64,000 nt of DNA from Gammaproteobacteria bacterium (GTDB lineage Bacteria > Pseudomonadota > Gammaproteobacteria > Steroidobacterales > Foliamicaceae). Under the pieces are notes generated by a model that searched no databases, had not been told where the DNA came from, and worked only from the letters and a program-made list of their open reading frames with translations. Within the stretch, counting starts at the first letter, position 1. Each line of letters begins with the position of its first letter. The stretch is taken from contig OZ243929.1 in assembly GCA_965213995.1 (NCBI GenBank), positions 1,807-65,806 on the forward strand, given 5' to 3'. Positions 3,220 to 58,177 of the stretch are shown here, in pieces. A program made the translations under genes and the position numbers.

Positions 3220-3630
3220 ATGCGCAGATCCATTATTCAAGCCGCCGGCGAGGAAGCCAAGGCGGAAATCAATCTAACGCCCATGCTGGACGTGGTGTTC
3301 ATCATGCTGATCTTCTTCATCGTCACCGCGTCGTTCGTCAAGGAGGCGGGGATTGATGTGAACCGGCCCGATGCGCCCACGGCCATCAGGCAGGAGAAGG
3401 CGAACATACTGGTGGCGATCAGCGCCGACAACGAGATCTGGATCGACCGGCGGCGCATTGACCCGCGGGCGGTGCGGGCCAATATCGAGCGCCTGCACGC
3501 CGAGAACCCGGAGGGTTCGGTTATTATTCAGGCCGATAAGCGGGCCTACACGGAAACGCTTGTGAGCGTGATGGATTCGGCCCGTCAGGCCGGCGTGTTC
3601 AACGTGTCGATAGCGGCGAGCGAGGACTGA
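3220..3630 (+). CDS. exbD: ExbD/TolR-type biopolymer transport protein
   Basis: 136 aa with the N-terminal anchor EINLTPMLDVVFIMLIFFIV and a periplasmic domain. Confidence 0.9.
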   Translation: MRRSIIQAAGEEAKAEINLTPMLDVVFIMLIFFIVTASFVKEAGIDVNRPDAPTAIRQEKANILVAISADNEIWIDRRRIDPRAVRANIERLHAENPEGSVIIQADKRAYTETLVSVMDSARQAGVFNVSIAASED

Positions 3631-7535: not shown

Positions 7536-7632
7536 CGGGCTGGCCTCCTGGGGGGTGGGGGTGGCGGCGCGGATTCAGCCGTTGAGAATAGCACATGCCA
7601 GCCTTATTTCTGATCTTTCTGTGCTTCCTTCG

Positions 7633-7739
7633 CCCGGTTATTGCGCCACTTCTCGCGGGAGACGCATTCGTCATCCATGACGCTTGCCGAGAGGCATCCT
7701 GCCTTCGACACTCCCGCGAGAAGTGGCGCAATAACCGGG
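7633..7739. repeat. Long-stem hairpin A1 (29-bp perfect arms, 49-nt core loop; core in reverse orientation)
   Basis: 7633-7661 CCCGGTTATTGCGCCACTTCTCGCGGGAG is the exact reverse complement of 7711-7739. The loop is homologous to those of A2, B, C and E. Confidence 0.85.
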
Positions 7740-7773
7740 CTTGGCTGGTGCTGGCCGGGCTGGCGGCAAGCAA

Positions 7774-7883
7774 GCCTGATTCGCAGCCCCCCTTCCCGCA
7801 GGGGCGTCTGGGGCAGGGATGCCCCAGCCGAGCGTCAGGATGACTTCATGCGTCCCCTGCGGGAAGGGGGCTGCGAATCAGGC
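7774..7883. repeat. Long-stem hairpin A2 (~30-bp arms with a 1-nt bulge, 49-nt core loop; core in forward orientation)
   Basis: 7774-7804 pairs with 7854-7883. The loop is CGTCTGGGGCAGGGATGCCCCAGCCGAGCGTCAGGATGACTTCATGCGT. Confidence 0.85.
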
Positions 7884-7899
7884 GATTCCGCCCGAAACG

Positions 7900-8760
7900 C
7901 TAAGGCGCGATAAGTTCGACCCACTCGCCCACGGGGCCGCGCCACATGGATGCGGGCCGGCCGTGGTAGGGGGCGCCGGATTGCCCGGTTAGCGTTGGCG
8001 TGCCGGGGTCGTCGCAAGTGAAGCTCACCATGCTGATGGAAGGCGGCAGCCAGCCTTCAGGCTGCGGGCGCGGCGCGGCGGTTTCCGGCATGCTGTCGAG
8101 CTCGATCAGGTTGCTTCCCTCCAAAGGCATCGTGGAAAGCATGAAGCGGTGGTTGGCCGGCAGGCCGTAAGCCTGGCCCATCACCGTGATCTTCACCGGC
8201 CGCGGCTCGCTCGCGGGAATCCCGAAACGCTTCCTCCAGCCTTCGGCGAGCATTTCCACGCTGGGGCCGCCTAGGATCACGATGAACGCGCGGTCCACGA
8301 AATCCACCGCTTCGGGCACGTCGAATCCCGTTTTGCGCTTGAACATGGTGAGGTACAGGAATTCCTTGGCCGGGCCTTGCACCTGCATCGCGCGAATCGC
8401 GTCGCTGATCGACAGGTCGGCGGGCGGCCCTAGGATATGGAAGGGCGTGCCCATCAATTGCTGCTCCAGCGCATCGGTGTCCTGCACCATCAATTCCGCG
8501 GCATTCCAGCCCCAGTGCAGATAGGCTTCGTAACCCGGCGCGGCAGGTTGCTCCACAAACCGGAAGTGGAAGCCCTCGGAGGTTTCCGGCGCCATCAGCA
8601 GGAACTGCGCGCCCTCCACCGCTTCGGCGCCCCAAAACGCCGCCAGTTCGCCTGGAATCCTCCCGCCAGCCGTGGCCTGGTAGCCCAGATGCTTGTAGGC
8701 ATCCTCCATCGCGCCCAGGTCGGGCGCCGCTATGGTGACGCAGGTGATGGGGCCGATCAT
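7900..8760 (-). CDS. Hypothetical protein (possibly a two-domain glyoxalase/VOC-like fold; weak)
   Basis: 286-aa ORF with a 4-nt overlap with the upstream isochorismatase-like gene. The N-terminus ITCVTIAAPDLGAMEDAYKHLGY resembles VOC starts. Confidence 0.6.
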   Translation of the reverse strand: MIGPITCVTIAAPDLGAMEDAYKHLGYQATAGGRIPGELAAFWGAEAVEGAQFLLMAPETSEGFHFRFVEQPAAPGYEAYLHWGWNAAELMVQDTDALEQQLMGTPFHILGPPADLSISDAIRAMQVQGPAKEFLYLTMFKRKTGFDVPEAVDFVDRAFIVILGGPSVEMLAEGWRKRFGIPASEPRPVKITVMGQAYGLPANHRFMLSTMPLEGSNLIELDSMPETAAPRPQPEGWLPPSISMVSFTCDDPGTPTLTGQSGAPYHGRPASMWRGPVGEWVELIAP

Positions 8761-23863: not shown

Positions 23864-24112
23864 CTAGCCCGCATATTGCGCCAAGCCGCTTGTTGCCTTC
23901 CTTATTTTGCTGATTAGTCAATGGCTTGTGCCCGGAATGTCCGCTTTCCGCCTAATGCGGAACGCGCTGGCCGCGTTCCCGCTGGTCTTTTGCCCGCTTG
24001 CGCGCGCATGCTCGCTGCGCCATAGGCATGGCTATGCCTTCGCTCGCGAGCACGCGCAATCGGGCAAAATCCTGCGCGGCCTCCGCGCCCCTTGGTGCAA
24101 TATCCGGGCTAG
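23864..24112. mobile_element. MITE-like 249-bp element E with 22-bp terminal inverted repeats, containing a family hairpin (23988-24069)
   Basis: The left end CTAGCCCGCATATTGCGCCAAG matches the reverse complement of 24091-24112, CTAGCCCGGATATTGCACCAAG, at 20 of 22 positions. Inner hairpin: arms 23988-24004 and 24053-24069 with a 48-nt loop. No transposase gene is present. Confidence 0.55.
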
Positions 24113-33603: not shown

Positions 33604-34602
33604 ATGCGGGACAGACAACCACTGGAGGACCGGCTGATCGCTTCGCTGTTCGCGCGCCATGGCGCTGATGGCGAGAGCGTGCTGGCCGGGCCCGGCGACG
33701 ACGCGGCGGTGGTGCGTTGTCCGTCTGGCGAGGATCTATCCATTACCACCGACACTCTCAACGAGGGCGTGCATTTTCCGGCCCGCGCTCCGGCCCGTTC
33801 CATCGGTCACCGGGTGCTGGCCGTGAGCCTCAGCGATTTGGCCTCAATGGGCGCCCGCCCGTTATGGGCAGTGGTGGCGCTGTCGTCGCCGAAGGCCGAG
33901 GAGAACTGGCTCAGGGATTTCGCCGACGGCCTCTTTGCGCTGGCGGACGGCTGCAGCCTGCGAATTGTGGGCGGTGACTTTGTGCAAGGGCCGCTCAGCG
34001 TTACGGCCACCTTGCATGGTTCGGCGCAGTCTGGCGCTGCATTGCGCCGCGTCGGCGCCGCCGCCGGCGACGGCATCTGGGTGTCCGGCTTTCTTGGGGA
34101 TGCGGCCGCCGGGCTCGGAGTGCTGAAGCAACGCTTGGCAAGCGAGGCCTCCAACCCTCTTCGGCACCAGCGCGCGGAGCGCGACGCAGCCAATCATCTG
34201 GTTGAGCGGTTCTGTTATCCGCAGCCCCGCATCGCTCTGGGTCGGCAACTGGCGGGTTTGGCAAGTGCCTGCATGGATCTGTCCGACGGGCTATCCGAAG
34301 ATCTGCCCCGCTTGCTTCGCAGCAGCGGCTTAGGCGCGCGGATCGAGCTGGAGCGATTGCCTCTATCCCCTGAATTGCTTGCCTATGCAGGCCGGCAGCA
34401 GGCGCGGCAACTGGCGTGGAATGGCGGTGACGATTATGAGCTCTGCTTTACGGTTCCTCCTGAAAACGAGGCGCGCATCGCGTCGATGGCGGCCTCCGCG
34501 CCGCTTGCGCGCATCGGCGAGCTGCATCGCGGCGCGGGCCTGGAAGTCACGCTCGACGGGGATTTCTGGCAGCCCGCGAATGCGGGCTTCAGGCACTTCT
34601 GA
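33604..34602 (+). CDS. thiL: Thiamine-monophosphate kinase
   Basis: 332 aa with GDDAAV, TTDTLNEGVHF and SLSDLASMGA. Confidence 0.9.
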   Translation: MRDRQPLEDRLIASLFARHGADGESVLAGPGDDAAVVRCPSGEDLSITTDTLNEGVHFPARAPARSIGHRVLAVSLSDLASMGARPLWAVVALSSPKAEENWLRDFADGLFALADGCSLRIVGGDFVQGPLSVTATLHGSAQSGAALRRVGAAAGDGIWVSGFLGDAAAGLGVLKQRLASEASNPLRHQRAERDAANHLVERFCYPQPRIALGRQLAGLASACMDLSDGLSEDLPRLLRSSGLGARIELERLPLSPELLAYAGRQQARQLAWNGGDDYELCFTVPPENEARIASMAASAPLARIGELHRGAGLEVTLDGDFWQPANAGFRHF

Positions 34603-35063
34603 TGCGCGGGCGGCTCCTTCGCTGGGCGGGGTCCGGCCTGGGATTGGGCTTTCTGCCCGCCGCGCCGGGCACTTGGGGCAGCCTTGGGGGCGTCGCGGTG
34701 TGGTGGCTTGCGCTTCCGCTGGGCTTGGCCGCGCAAGCCTTTCTGCTGATCGTTGCCGCTGTCCTCGCAGCGCCGATCTGCGGCGCTTGCGCCCGCGCGG
34801 CGGGCGAGAGCGACCCTTCCTTCGTTGTCCTTGATGAAATGCTGGGCATGTGGCTGGCGCTGTTGCTGGTCGAGCCTTCATGGCTCTGGGCGGCGGCGGC
34901 CTTTGCGCTTTTCCGGCTTCTCGATATCGCCAAGCCTTGGCCTGTCAGTTTCATGGAGAGGCGCTTCTCCGGCGGTCTTGGAATTTTGCTTGATGACTTG
35001 GTTTCAGGGCTAATAGCGGGAATAATAGTTATTATTATTCAATATATTGTTAATATAATCTAA
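34602..35063 (+). CDS. pgpA: Phosphatidylglycerophosphatase A
   Basis: GLGFLPAAPGTWGSL and LDEMLGMW. The last ~13 codons (IIVIIIQYIVNII) lie in an extreme AT-rich tract. Confidence 0.85.
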   Translation: MRGRLLRWAGSGLGLGFLPAAPGTWGSLGGVAVWWLALPLGLAAQAFLLIVAAVLAAPICGACARAAGESDPSFVVLDEMLGMWLALLLVEPSWLWAAAAFALFRLLDIAKPWPVSFMERRFSGGLGILLDDLVSGLIAGIIVIIIQYIVNII

Positions 35064-35086
35064 ATTATATTTTAGATTATAATTTA
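35021..35086. repeat. Extreme AT-rich tract with an 11-bp perfect palindrome (35054-35081) spanning the pgpA stop codon
   Basis: TATAATCTAAA-TTATAT-TTTAGATTATA. The surrounding DNA is GC-rich. Confidence 0.7.
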
Positions 35087-35296: not shown

Positions 35297-35412
35297 CCCG
35301 CCATTATCACCGCATTGATGTTCCCGCCGCTTTGCCCGCAGCGACTTGGAGCGACGTTTCGGCATGTCGTCGAGCGTGGTATCGGGAATATTTCGAGGCG
35401 CGGCGAATCAGC

Positions 35413-37089
35413 ATGCTGCCCGTGTACACTGCCCACGCGATGAGCGGCCGCGAGACGATGGAGTTCGACGTGATTGTGGTGGGCGGCGGCCCCTGCGGTC
35501 TTGCCGCCGCTATTCGCCTGGCCCAGCTTGCGCGCTCGGGCGGGCGCGAACTGAACGTTTGCCTTCTGGAGAAGGGCGCGGAAATCGGGGCGCATATCGT
35601 TTCCGGCGCGGTGCTCGAATCGCGGGCCTTGGACGAGTTGCTGCCCGGCTGGCGGGAGCAGGGGGCGCCGCCGGCCACGCCGGTCCGCAGCGACGATTTC
35701 CATTTTCTGCTTTCGCCGCGGCGCGCGCTGAAGCTGCCGGGTTTGTTCATTCCGCATCCGATGCGTAACCACGGCAACTTCATTGCGAGCTTAGGCGCGC
35801 TGTGCCGGTGGTTGGGGGAGCGCGCCGAAACGCTGGGCGTGAATGTGTTTCCGGGCTACCCGGCCTCGGAAGTGCTGTATGAGAACGGGCGCGTGGCGGG
35901 CGTGGCCACCGGGGAGATGGGCCGGGCGCGCGATGGCTCTGAAAAAGCGGGTTTCGAGGCGGGCATCGAACTGCGCGCGCCCTACACCATATTCGCCGAA
36001 GGCTGCCGCGGCAGCCTGGGCAAGGCGCTGATGGCGCGGTTCGGGCTGCGCAAGAACTGCGATCCGCAGCATTACGGCATCGGCATCAAGGAAATCTGGC
36101 GGGCGCCCGATAAGCGTCATAGGCCGGGGGCGGTGGTGCATACGCTGGGCTGGCCGCTGGCGCGGGACACGGAAGGCGGCGGATTCCTTTACCATGCGCA
36201 CGACGGGCTTGTCTATCTCGGCTTTATCGTGGCGCTCAACTACCGCAATCCGCATTTGGATCCTTTCGCGGAGTTCCAGCGCTGGAAGCATCACCCCCGC
36301 ATTCGCGAGGCAATTGAGGGGGGAGAACGCATTTCCTGGGGCGCGCGGGCGGTTAATAAAGGCGGCCTGCAATCGCTTCCGAAGATCGCCTTTCCGGGCG
36401 GTATGCTTGCGGGCTGCGAGGCCGGCTTTCTCAACGGCGCCAAGATCAAGGGCAGCCACACTGCCATGAAGACCGGCATGCTGGCGGCGGAAACGGTTTT
36501 CGAGGCGCTGTCCGGGGGGGACGGGCCGCCTGCGATCCTAGCGGGTTACGAGGACGCAGTGCGTGATTCCTGGGTGCATGAGGAATTATGGCGGGCGCGC
36601 AATTTCGGTCCGGCGCAGCATCATTTCGGCCTGCTGGGCGGCTCGGCCTTCACTTGGCTCGATCAGAACGTGTTTCGCGGGCGGCTGCCTTTCACGCTGC
36701 ATAACCGCGAGCCGGACCACGCGGCCTTGCGCCCTGCGGCGGAATCATCCGGGATCAACTATCCGAAGCCGGACGGCAAGCTGAGTTTCGACAAGCTCTC
36801 CTCGGTTTATCTTTCGGCCGCCAACCATGAGGAAGACCAGCCCTGCCATTTGAGGCTCGCGGATGCGGACACGCCGATTCGCGAAAATCTGCCCCGGTTC
36901 GACGAGCCGGCGCAGCGTTACTGTCCGGCCGCTGTTTACGAAGTGGCCTGGGAAGGGAAGGCGCCGCGCTTCGTCATCAACGCGCCTAACTGCATTCACT
37001 GCAAGACCTGCGATATCAAGGATCCGGCGCAGAACATCAACTGGGTGACTCCGGAGGGCGGCGGCGGCCCCAATTACGCCGGCATGTAG
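35413..37089 (+). CDS. Electron-transfer flavoprotein:ubiquinone oxidoreductase
   Basis: FDVIVVGGGPCGLAAA FAD motif and the C-terminal 4Fe-4S motif CIHCKTCDIKDP. The start is uncertain (ATG 35413 chosen; the track begins at 35332). Confidence 0.9.
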   Translation: MLPVYTAHAMSGRETMEFDVIVVGGGPCGLAAAIRLAQLARSGGRELNVCLLEKGAEIGAHIVSGAVLESRALDELLPGWREQGAPPATPVRSDDFHFLLSPRRALKLPGLFIPHPMRNHGNFIASLGALCRWLGERAETLGVNVFPGYPASEVLYENGRVAGVATGEMGRARDGSEKAGFEAGIELRAPYTIFAEGCRGSLGKALMARFGLRKNCDPQHYGIGIKEIWRAPDKRHRPGAVVHTLGWPLARDTEGGGFLYHAHDGLVYLGFIVALNYRNPHLDPFAEFQRWKHHPRIREAIEGGERISWGARAVNKGGLQSLPKIAFPGGMLAGCEAGFLNGAKIKGSHTAMKTGMLAAETVFEALSGGDGPPAILAGYEDAVRDSWVHEELWRARNFGPAQHHFGLLGGSAFTWLDQNVFRGRLPFTLHNREPDHAALRPAAESSGINYPKPDGKLSFDKLSSVYLSAANHEEDQPCHLRLADADTPIRENLPRFDEPAQRYCPAAVYEVAWEGKAPRFVINAPNCIHCKTCDIKDPAQNINWVTPEGGGGPNYAGM

Positions 37090-56479: not shown

Positions 56480-56712
56480 CCGCCCTCCCGCCAATTCCTC
56501 TGCCGGGATTGTCTGGGCGCTTCGATCCCGCCTTTCTTGGCCTCATCCTCTTCCGTGAGACGCATGAACCCATCCATGGGGCTTGGCGGCGACTCCTGTC
56601 GCCGGCACTCCCGGAAGAGGATGAGGCCAAGAAAGGCTATAGCCGCTCATTTGCTTATTCGGATAGAGGCACCGAAGGATTAGGCTGGGTAGAGGAATTG
56701 GCGGGAGGGCGG
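56480..56712. repeat. Nested hairpins: outer C' (22-bp arms 56480-56501 and 56691-56712) enclosing inner C (29-bp arms 56531-56559 and 56608-56636, 48-nt core loop)
   Basis: CCGCCCTCCCGCCAATTCCTCT pairs with AGAGGAATTGGCGGGAGGGCGG. CCTTTCTTGGCCTCATCCTCTTCCG pairs with CGGAAGAGGATGAGGCCAAGAAAGG. The inner loop begins ACGCATGAACCCATCCATGG, the family core in reverse orientation. Confidence 0.85.
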
Positions 56713-57794: not shown

Positions 57795-57900
57795 TATTTT
57801 CTGCGTCCGAGTGTCCCACGCCGCCCCACGACACCGACTTTGCAGGCTGGCGCGATGCGCCGCCTAGCCCGCATATTGCACCAATCTGCGCCAGCTAAAG

Positions 57901-58128
57901 CCCTTTTCCTGCCCCTGCCTCGCGGGAGCGTCTGGGGCAGGGCGAGCATCGGTCGCTGCGCGCAGCGCAGCGAGGCAAAGCATGCCTTTGCCAGATGCGA
58001 GCGGGACGGCAGGAGGCCGGCCCCGGGCGTGATTCCGGCACTGCCGCGCGGCAGGGATGCCAACAGCAACTTGGGGAAGCATGAGGATGGGTTCATGCGT
58101 CTCCCGCGAGGCAGAGGCAGGAAAAGGG
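57901..58128. repeat. Long-stem hairpin B (28-bp arms with 1 mismatch; 172-nt loop = family core interrupted by a 114-nt insertion)
   Basis: 57901-57928 CCCTTTTCCTGCCCCTGCCTCGCGGGAG pairs with 58101-58128. The loop starts CGTCTGGGGCAGGG and ends GAGGATGGGTTCATGCGT. GGCAGGG is duplicated at 57936-57942 and 58050-58056. Confidence 0.85.
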
Positions 58129-58177
58129 CGAGGGCGAGCGAAGGCGAAGGCATAGCCGCGCCTATGGCGCCGCGGCC

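Follow-up and report, generated by a model that had tools for sequence, protein, structure and literature searches.

The 64,000-nucleotide stretch of gammaproteobacterial DNA analysed here (contig OZ243929.1, positions 1,807 to 65,806; hereafter the window) carries two neighbouring intergenic hairpins, A1 and A2, each of which consists of a long stem (P1) enclosing a 49-nt core, and both belong to the multi-copy repeat family that is the subject of this study. The initial annotation, made from the letters alone, had described A1 as a 29-bp perfect stem with a 49-nt loop; the perfect pairing and the loop length stand, but the stem is actually 30 bp long (7632-7661/7711-7740). The A2 stem (7774-7804/7854-7883, with one 1-nt bulge) and its 49-nt core were confirmed, as was the homology of the two cores in opposite orientation. 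By chance, 64 kb of sequence would be expected to hold approximately 1.6e-10 perfect inverted repeats of 30 bp whose loop does not exceed 300 nt. An inverted-repeat scan of the window returned only A1 and two further hairpins, C and D, at a length of at least 29 nt and a complementarity of at least 97%, and A2 was split into two shorter segments by its bulge. In the predicted folds of either strand, the long stem closes a three-way junction (-76 to -90 kcal/mol, z = -10 to -14.6).

Two of the cores (A1 and C) run one way and the other two (A2 and D) run the opposite way, and their scores with the covariance model of the family are 88 (A2), 84 (C), 70 (A1), and 25 bits (D). The divergent genes nadA and nrtR flank C, and D, whose 172-nt core is partly decayed (approximately 120 nt is inserted in P2, and P3 is broken), lies between tRNA-Val and lhr; intergenic placement holds for all four copies. 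The related cores that had been listed at 56560-56607 and 57929-58100 are those of C and the decayed D, respectively, whereas the core at 24005-24052, called E, scored 11 bits (E-value 2.5) and belongs to a different hairpin. This separate hairpin (23987-24068) has a 17-bp stem and a 48-nt loop, and its inner 25-mer GCGCCATAGGCATGGCTATGCCTTC was found again, inverted, beside copy D (58141-58166), which looks like a second small repeat family. The coordinates of all parts are given in Table 1.

Table 1 Features of the hairpin family in the window. P1, long stem; P2 and P3, helices of the core; J, joining strands; bits, score with the covariance model.
Feature	Position	Strand	Remarks
A1 P1 arm	7632..7661	-	3' arm in core-forward reading (- strand); 30 nt, 100% complementary to 7711-7740
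A1 core	7662..7710	-	49 nt; - strand reads TGTCGAAGGCAGGATGCCTCTCGGCAAGCGTCATGGATGACGAATGCGT; 70.4 bits
A1 core helices			P2 AGGC/GCCT, loop AGGAT; P3 GTCA/TGAC, loop TGGA; three-way junction in predicted fold
A1 joining strand			GAATGCGT, slightly degenerate
A1 other P1 arm	7711..7740	-	pairs with 7632-7661
A1-A2 linker	7741..7773	.	33 nt, inside head-to-head (-,+) doublet
A2 P1 5' arm	7774..7804	+	31 nt, one bulged C; pairs with 7854-7883
A2 core	7805..7853	+	49 nt; 88.2 bits; 98% identical to L053 orthologue
A2 core junctions	J1/2 7805-7807; J2/3 7828-7833; J3/1 7845-7853		CGT; CCGAGC; TTCATGCGT; from pair counts in 72 copies
A2 P2	7808-7814 with 7821-7827	+	loop AGGGAT 7815-7820; from pair counts in 72 copies
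A2 P3	7834-7837 with 7841-7844	+	loop GGA 7838-7840; from pair counts in 72 copies
A2 P1 3' arm	7854..7883	+	ends 17 nt before stop codon of gene 7900-8760 (-)
Copy C	56530..56637	-	arms 56530-56559/56608-56637, 30 nt, 97% complementary; 84.4 bits
Copy C core	56560-56607	forward on -	48 nt
Copy D	57900..58129	+	arms 57900-57928/58101-58129, 29 nt, 97% complementary; 24.7 bits over 3' part
Outer inverted repeats around copy C	56480-56504/56688-56712 (span 56480..56712)	.	25 bp each, from inverted-repeat scan

The repeat unit is approximately 110 bp long. The length of P1 peaks at 31 bp, with most copies between 28 and 33 bp, and the core measures 47 to 50 nt in 69 of the 82 copies. P1 closes a junction made up of a conserved joining strand, UUCAUGCGU, and two small hairpins that carry A(N)GGAU in their loops; the order within the core is J1/2 (YGUY), P2 (3-7 bp, with the loop AGG(G)AU or AGGACA), RAGC, P3 (NNCA/UGNN, with the loop (N)GGA), and UUCAUGCGU. 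GGA is invariant in P3 (72/72 copies), and almost every P2 loop has it as well. The motif GGATG(N2-3)TTCATGCGT, which had been read as unpaired, is in part paired: the 4-bp P3 has GGA as its loop, and the N2-3 segment is the 3' strand of P3, which covaries with two upstream bases. Likewise, the outer 20 bp or so of P1 had been reported to lack similarity between copies. This is correct for the sequence (pairwise identity of 44%) but not for the composition, which is kept (the 3' arm is approximately 81% purine), and the inner 10 bp are conserved between copies as CTCCCGSRAG (CTCGCGGGAG/CTCCCGCGAG). In a purine/pyrimidine alphabet, the identity of the outer stem was 0.72, which agrees with the value expected from composition alone (0.69). 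Cores also occur as subtypes, namely, a 40-nt form ending in GAGCCAGGATGGCGY, a form with CACAGGGATGTG-CTCGYTGCGT, and a 64-72-nt form in which P2 holds an additional hairpin; what all of them have in common is the inner stem and the pair of A(N)GGAU loops. A small palindrome, GCGCCAAT(A/C)GCTTGGCGC, was also observed standing alone, inside P2 of long cores, or in place of P3 in "type II" cores without TTCATGCGT (L113 2129-2250, L094 3256-3400, L116 ~3470-3490, and P2 of the 70-nt cores, e.g., in L009 and L097). A mini open reading frame on the reverse strand (GGGAG-N4-AUG) was considered and ruled out, because 1-nt indels in P3 break the frame.

An exact-pattern scan with GGATGNNTTCATGCGTCYC against one genome per species returned at least 110 stretches. 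The same architecture was found in about 82 of the 120 matches listed, and the remainder were chance matches in coding DNA. Together, the pattern scan and the covariance model gave more than 120 copies in about 110 loci among the matches listed, in which copies with intact cores are over-represented because the loci were picked by the core motif. Only two of the more than 120 model hits fell inside genes, which were called with a simple self-trained open reading frame scorer. A metagenome scan added approximately 22 copies, mostly on LXNI/LXNJ/MKWU contigs. The true copies reside in metagenome-assembled genomes (MAGs) of sponge-associated Gammaproteobacteria, with many copies per genome (VYBN01, JAPYNE01, RKRP01, JAPOTY01, CBDATM01, OY762933, OZ220729, and Ca. 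Foliamicus), and a few are found in MAGs of Desulfuromonadales/Geopsychrobacteraceae. The window corresponds to contig_1 of ENA ERZ25070841, and its host is a sponge-symbiont-type gammaproteobacterium; its nearest named relative is the MAG OZ220729.1, in which locus L053 is orthologous to the A1-A2 locus and the flanking methyltransferase shows 92% protein identity. Extrapolation from the four copies in 64 kb would give approximately 200 copies per genome. In a scan of the window against Rfam 15 at gathering thresholds, only tRNA-Val passed, and a permissive scan of 7560-7960 gave only generic-hairpin matches below threshold (mraW, two miRNA precursors, and a CRISPR repeat). No family match was found in plasmid sequences, the 11 matches in viral contigs were all chance matches within coding sequence and without a hairpin, and a literature search on the motif sequence and on sponge-symbiont repeats found nothing relevant. 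The family, which the initial annotation had not recognised, is thus apparently undescribed in these sources, and it is a well-defined addition to bacterial repeats that is present in several sponge-associated MAGs.

Pairing was counted over 72 distinct copies. The three helices together were paired in 93% of cells, compared with 72% in shuffled alignments, and none of 500 shuffles reached the observed value; when the partners were slid along, pairing fell to 35-50%. Individual pairs alternate between complementary states: in P3, pair 46:57 is CG in 39 copies, UA in 27, and GC in 5, and pair 47:56 is CG in 51, AU in 11, and UA in 7, whereas pair 23:32 in P2 is GC in 44, CG in 14, and AU in 13. 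Strong covariation, well beyond both the shuffled and the slid controls, was therefore present in all three helices, which bears out the proposal of a structured family with covarying helices, and the inner helices P2 and P3 are really under selection. G.U made up approximately 1.4% of cells and was no commoner than other mismatches, so that the covariation is Watson-Crick only. This scarcity of G.U is unusual for helices selected as RNA.

The evolution of the arms was followed in four orthologous pairs of copies with equal stem length. In these pairs, 95 stem positions were unchanged, 20 differed on both arms without loss of pairing, and 4 differed on one arm only; 13 of the 20 double-arm changes were transversions, for which there is no wobble intermediate. 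Orthologous cores were identical at 49/50, 50/50, 45/49, and 48/49 positions, whereas the DNA flanking the four pairs was 73-89% identical. Between the window and L053, the arms were 80-90% identical and the neighbouring non-coding DNA 77-82% (82% for the A1-A2 linker). The stems thus drift near the local non-coding rate but in lock-step, and the cores barely change. Pairing does not depend on the state of the core, as the 29-bp stem of D is still paired around its disrupted core and stems are also paired around swapped ones. Such a swap of core subtype (49 versus 40 nt) on conserved stems was seen at two orthologous sites (window A1 versus L053, and L101 versus L107); it indicates that cores are replaceable, presumably through gene conversion using the shared inner stem.

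Compensatory change in the long stems had originally been taken as part of the signature of a selected RNA or single-stranded DNA structure. As a sign of selection on RNA it is not upheld: the scarce G.U pairs, the transversions, and the paired stems at decayed (D) or swapped (A1 versus L053) cores point to copying between the arms at the DNA level. What still favours a selected single-strand fold, be it of RNA or of single-stranded DNA, is only the covariation of the short helices P2 and P3 together with the core's extreme conservation. Two reports describe how template switching between inverted repeats homogenises the arms and inverts the spacer (PMC7202029, PMC8604942), and arm homogenisation at the DNA level is the most likely mechanism behind stems that are individually perfect and mutually unrelated. 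The family therefore offers a natural data set of co-evolving inverted-repeat arms, transversions included, which is direct comparative evidence of arm-to-arm copying in bacterial chromosomes. It also carries a caution, namely, that compensatory change in long hairpins is by itself no proof of a selected RNA structure.

We favour, with a probability of about 0.5, the reading that A1-A2 is a head-to-head doublet of a palindromic intergenic family resembling REP, BIME, and REPIN repeats, which folds as DNA, has its arms homogenised by template switching, and keeps its core for a putative factor. The initial annotation had held that the hairpins are not what REP families or miniature inverted-repeat transposable elements (MITEs) look like. 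Their behaviour is nevertheless that of REP, BIME, and REPIN repeats, as they are multi-copy, extragenic, enriched between convergent genes, arranged in doublets and arrays of fixed orientation, and polymorphic in presence and orientation; REPIN hairpins are likewise reported to carry compensatory changes (PMC3116915). In the proposed mechanism, the unit would act as DNA and fold in its single-stranded state. Intramolecular template switching, of the kind seen in quasipalindrome correction, would either erase a mutation in one arm or transfer it to the opposite arm, and through such copying each unit would drift, at about the local non-coding rate, to a stem of its own yet stay perfectly paired. 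The spacer may be inverted by the same process or by recombination between inverted repeats. The core would be held constant by selection and/or by gene conversion among copies, as the part recognised by a putative trans-acting factor, for which the closest parallel is a RAYT/IS200-type HUH enzyme acting on single-stranded DNA hairpins. On transcription, the units would give long hairpins just past stop codons, as REPs do.

The placement of the copies was examined with respect to the called genes, and the 3' ends of genes were preferred. Copies occupied 23 of 65 convergent intergenic regions, compared with 8 of 59 divergent ones (p = 0.007) and 34 of 231 co-directional ones. The 104 clusters comprised 83 solo copies, 17 doublets, and 4 arrays. 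Based on hairpin calls, 11 of 13 doublets, including A1-A2, had the order (-,+) (p = 1e-5), and the order (+,-) never occurred; based on model hits, 15 of 27 adjacent pairs were (-,+), 12 were tandem, and none was (+,-). Tandem arrays and partial copies are also present: in L033 (1446-1803) and L049 (1485-1951), four to five complete or partial units follow one another in one orientation, with progressively decayed cores (L033: 92, 66, 62, and 56 bits). The strand that reads GGA is antisense to the flanking genes in 39 cases versus 23 over all copies. This bias is 26:10 for solo copies between co-directional genes (p = 0.011), in which the antisense copies adjoin the upstream stop codon at a median distance of 17-23 nt, and it is absent between convergent genes (12:11). 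Orientation relative to the local GC skew (26:16) was not significant.

A second explanation of this placement, which we regard as rather unlikely, is that the unit is an RNA element of gene 3' ends, serving as a terminator, pause site, or 3'-exonuclease barrier, with the mRNA-sense core (5'-ACGCAUGAA..., with AUCC(N)U loops) binding a factor. The enrichment between convergent genes, the position of the antisense solo copies next to the upstream stop codon, and the 26:10 bias all agree with it, and the cores are better conserved in that orientation (median of 82 versus 62 bits, p = 0.057). The doublet would then be a direction-independent version, because (-,+) reverse-complements to (-,+) and transcription from either side meets the same order of units, and the arm transcribed first is always rich in C and U. 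REPs act as stabilisers of mRNA 3' ends. However, there is no T-tract after the stem, and no intrinsic-terminator-like site was called at A1 or A2. The units are followed at the 3' side by GAGGGA or GGAATCG, the counterparts on the reverse strand being TTTAG or TACGG, and no T-run follows either arm. Nor would this explanation lead one to expect the 12:11 ratio between convergent genes, the location of C between divergent genes and of D and A1 upstream of start codons, covariation that is Watson-Crick only, or a 49-nt invariant core, which a plain hairpin function does not need.

The GGA loops themselves suggest a different role. Gammaproteobacteria and Desulfuromonadales generally have CsrA, and the forward strand resembles a CsrA/Rsm-binding RNA module, in which two candidate CsrA sites approximately 24 nt apart would be clamped by P1 and the unit would act as a decoy or place its neighbours under Csr control; the long stem would perhaps be trimmed by RNase III. 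We consider this reading unlikely. P3 reads NNCA(N)GGAUGNN, e.g., UACAGGGAUGUA, and the P2 loops read CAGG(G)AUG or CAGGACAG, which equal the CsrB repeat CAGGA(U/A/C)G, the SELEX consensus RUACARGGAUGU, and the ANGGAN hexaloop, and CsrA dimers span pairs of sites that lie 10-63 nt from each other (PMC7652899). The GGA loops, invariant in P3 and nearly so in P2, are moreover shared by all core subtypes. By contrast, the GGA strand is mostly antisense to the flanking genes, no promoter-like sequence or terminator flanks the units, the invariant UUCAUGCGU is left unexplained, the 70-nt cores swap the P2 loop for another hairpin, and no Csr/Rsm family of Rfam matched even at E-values up to 10. A tblastn search of about 1 Mb of sampled loci with three CsrA/RsmE proteins found no csrA, a result that is uninformative for a single-copy gene. 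If the core is a protein-binding platform, of the CsrA type or another, hundreds of symbiont gene ends would be tied to one regulator.

Comparison of orthologous intergenic regions showed that both the presence and the orientation of copies vary between relatives. In the nadA-nrtR-tRNA-Val-lhr region, the C and D sites are empty in L115-L117 (79-86% NrtR identity), whereas L113, a 95% relative, carries C together with an additional copy, X, and its D site holds a different copy in the opposite orientation. A copy in L101 is absent from L107 (89-94% identical). In strain ERZ25072442 (L001 ~2650-2790, orthologous to window 7660-7800), a 137-nt tandem duplication has produced a chimera of the A2 left arm with the A1 core and right arm; the duplication junction falls in conserved inner-stem sequence. 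The one clean filled/empty pair, X in L113 versus the window, shows a 2-3-nt CC(T) ambiguity that fits either a tiny target-site duplication or a slippage deletion. In MAGs, the repeats are likely break points and sources of mis-assembly, and they are useful as strain markers.

These comparisons bear on whether the mobile entity might be smaller than the unit. A 40-50-nt core with conserved inverted ends of approximately 10 bp could move or convert as a cassette, and the outer stems would be resident or local, made for example by fold-back copying of the flank. Identical (100%) cores occur on unrelated stems across genomes, core and stem identity are uncorrelated (r = -0.004), and the core subtypes differ on conserved stems at the two orthologous sites named above. 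In addition, the outermost block of copy X is GGTGCC/GGCACC, the left half of which is already in the empty site of the window. We find this possibility improbable in view of the sequence just outside the hairpins, which is conserved by subfamily at unrelated loci (..CTAAA/GCC, ..CGTA/GCC, GGC/GAGGGA, and GGC/GGAATCGAAGCGC, with the hairpin boundary at the slash); hence the variable stems are part of the repeat itself and do not come from its target. The stem length is also tightly held at 28-33 bp, approximately 0.9 Mb of sequence contained no "empty" P1-type hairpins with short loops, and X could have taken only 4-6 bp from its flank, and a deletion between CCT repeats explains the same data. 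Two related schemes were ruled out on the same grounds: copying of stems from the target site as a general rule, by the subfamily-conserved flanks and the fixed stem length, and insertion into pre-existing palindromes, by the lack of empty P1-type hairpins in the same 0.9 Mb.

A three-way junction with conserved joining strands could also belong to a structured RNA gene or a self-cleaving ribozyme. Approximately 17 conserved junction nucleotides, covarying helices, and conservation across two phyla fit such a role, but we judge it highly improbable, because the units lie in both orientations relative to genes, lack a promoter or terminator, occur in an estimated hundreds of copies per genome as well as in arrays and doublets, covary in Watson-Crick pairs only, resemble no Rfam ribozyme, and include subtypes without the UUCAUGCGU strand. 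A more speculative idea, which we also hold to be rather unlikely, is that the junction is a dedicated ligand at hundreds of gene ends, kept by the host and bound by a CsrA-family regulator (as RNA) or by a domesticated HUH nuclease (as single-stranded DNA), in which case the long self-templating stem would be only a clamp or processing signal free of sequence requirements, and the doublet a form independent of transcription direction. If it is true, the family would be a new genome-wide cis-regulatory system and not a set of selfish repeats.

The REP/BIME/REPIN-like reading, which we prefer, has several observations against it. No RAYT, IS200-type, or other transposase recurred near the copies in approximately 1 Mb of sampled loci. 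The recurrent neighbour families were only large paralogous ones (TonB-dependent receptors, ABC ATPases, and short-chain dehydrogenases), and the open reading frame between two copies in L101 appears, from its sequence and without a family scan, to encode ApaH and does not resemble a transposase. There is no sign of recent copy-and-paste of whole units, unlike in REPIN and MITE populations with their master sequences: no two copies of one genome share a stem (maximum outer-stem identity of 0.91), and the mean identity is 0.63 within and 0.62 between genomes. Selection for mobility cannot explain why the core is conserved in old orthologous copies, which points to ongoing gene conversion or to a function at the level of the host. 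The centre and not the ends is most conserved, which is the reverse of REP, REPIN, and MITE repeats; the 3' arm keeps its purine content though its positions are scrambled, which neutral arm copying leaves unexplained; and the 26:10 bias of the solo copies hints at a strand-specific role. Five features find no explanation in this reading: arms with a purine/pyrimidine asymmetry, a stem of fixed length, a lack of master copies, a core conserved across phyla, and swaps of core subtype.

Several other repeats were observed in the window and at related loci. Copy C is surrounded by a pair of outer inverted repeats (Table 1), and the enclosed segment of 183 bp has the reverse orientation in the close relative L113/L114 (L113 is identical at 169/183 positions to the reverse complement, compared with 107/183 in direct orientation); it could be an invertible promoter-region segment at nadA-nrtR, or simply a fixed inversion. 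At 35051-35082, between the genes at 34602-35063 and 35332-37089, there is an AT-rich 16+16-nt near-palindrome (AATATAATCTAAATTA / TATTTTAGATTATAAT) in this 64% GC genome, found by a scan that allowed one mismatch. In L116 (3650-3860), short tandem repeats (approximately 17-nt units of TGCTGTTCCGCTCACAT, and GATTCGTAGCGCCGGGTT) 3' of tRNA-Val fill the spacer that holds D in the window. Finally, L040 3784-4060 and L085 75-340, both from the MAG VYBN01, contain an ordinary MITE-like element of approximately 270 nt with conserved 33-39-bp terminal inverted repeats, which is unrelated to the hairpin family.

Among known systems, the best sub-threshold match in Rfam, the mraW motif (RF01746), has in common with the family a long GC-rich hairpin, but it scored 30.8 bits against a gathering score of 50, and the generic stem alone was aligned while the 49-nt core was skipped. 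CsrB, RsmY, and RsmZ share hairpins of 7 bp or less, an A(N)GGA(U) loop with C-G closure, and two sites at bridging distance (PMC7652899), whereas the units described here have two sites each, lie in both orientations inside a 30-bp stem, lack a promoter and terminator, and do not match these families in Rfam. Quasipalindrome template switching (PMC7202029, PMC8604942) explains changes on both arms including transversions, perfect stems whatever the state of the core, and spacer inversion; it is, however, a mutational process and not a family of elements, and it leaves the conserved core and the purine/pyrimidine asymmetry of the arms unexplained. MITEs such as Correia/NEMIS, ERIC, and Nezha are likewise small non-coding intergenic palindromes that form long hairpins when transcribed and are polymorphic in presence, but they have conserved terminal inverted repeats, target-site duplications, and related insertion sequences, whereas here the outer arms are unique, no clear duplication was seen, and no parent insertion sequence with such ends was found in the sampled loci, plasmids, or viral contigs. 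BIMEs show the same fixed relative orientation, short linkers, arrays, and location at gene 3' ends; unlike in BIMEs, each unit here is itself a 110-nt hairpin, and the linkers are not strongly conserved. REPIN/REP repeats mobilised by RAYT are similar as high-copy, extragenic hairpin units of approximately 100 nt that occur in inverted doublets and ordered clusters, undergo compensatory changes (PMC3116915), persist vertically over the long term, and have been proposed to fold as single-stranded DNA. The GTAG found at the 5' foot of REPs occurs here in a minority of copies (..CGTA/GCC, which reads GTAGCC, in about 8 of 62), the others having CTAAA/GCC, GCAA/GCC, or GGA/GCC, so that only A/GCC is general. 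REPINs have conserved ends (REP plus a 16-mer) and a variable spacer, whereas here the centre (the core and the inner 10 bp) is invariant and the arms vary, every stem is unique without a master sequence, and the three-way-junction core is common to two phyla. With its free arms and conserved centre, the family thus inverts the usual logic of REP and MITE repeats.

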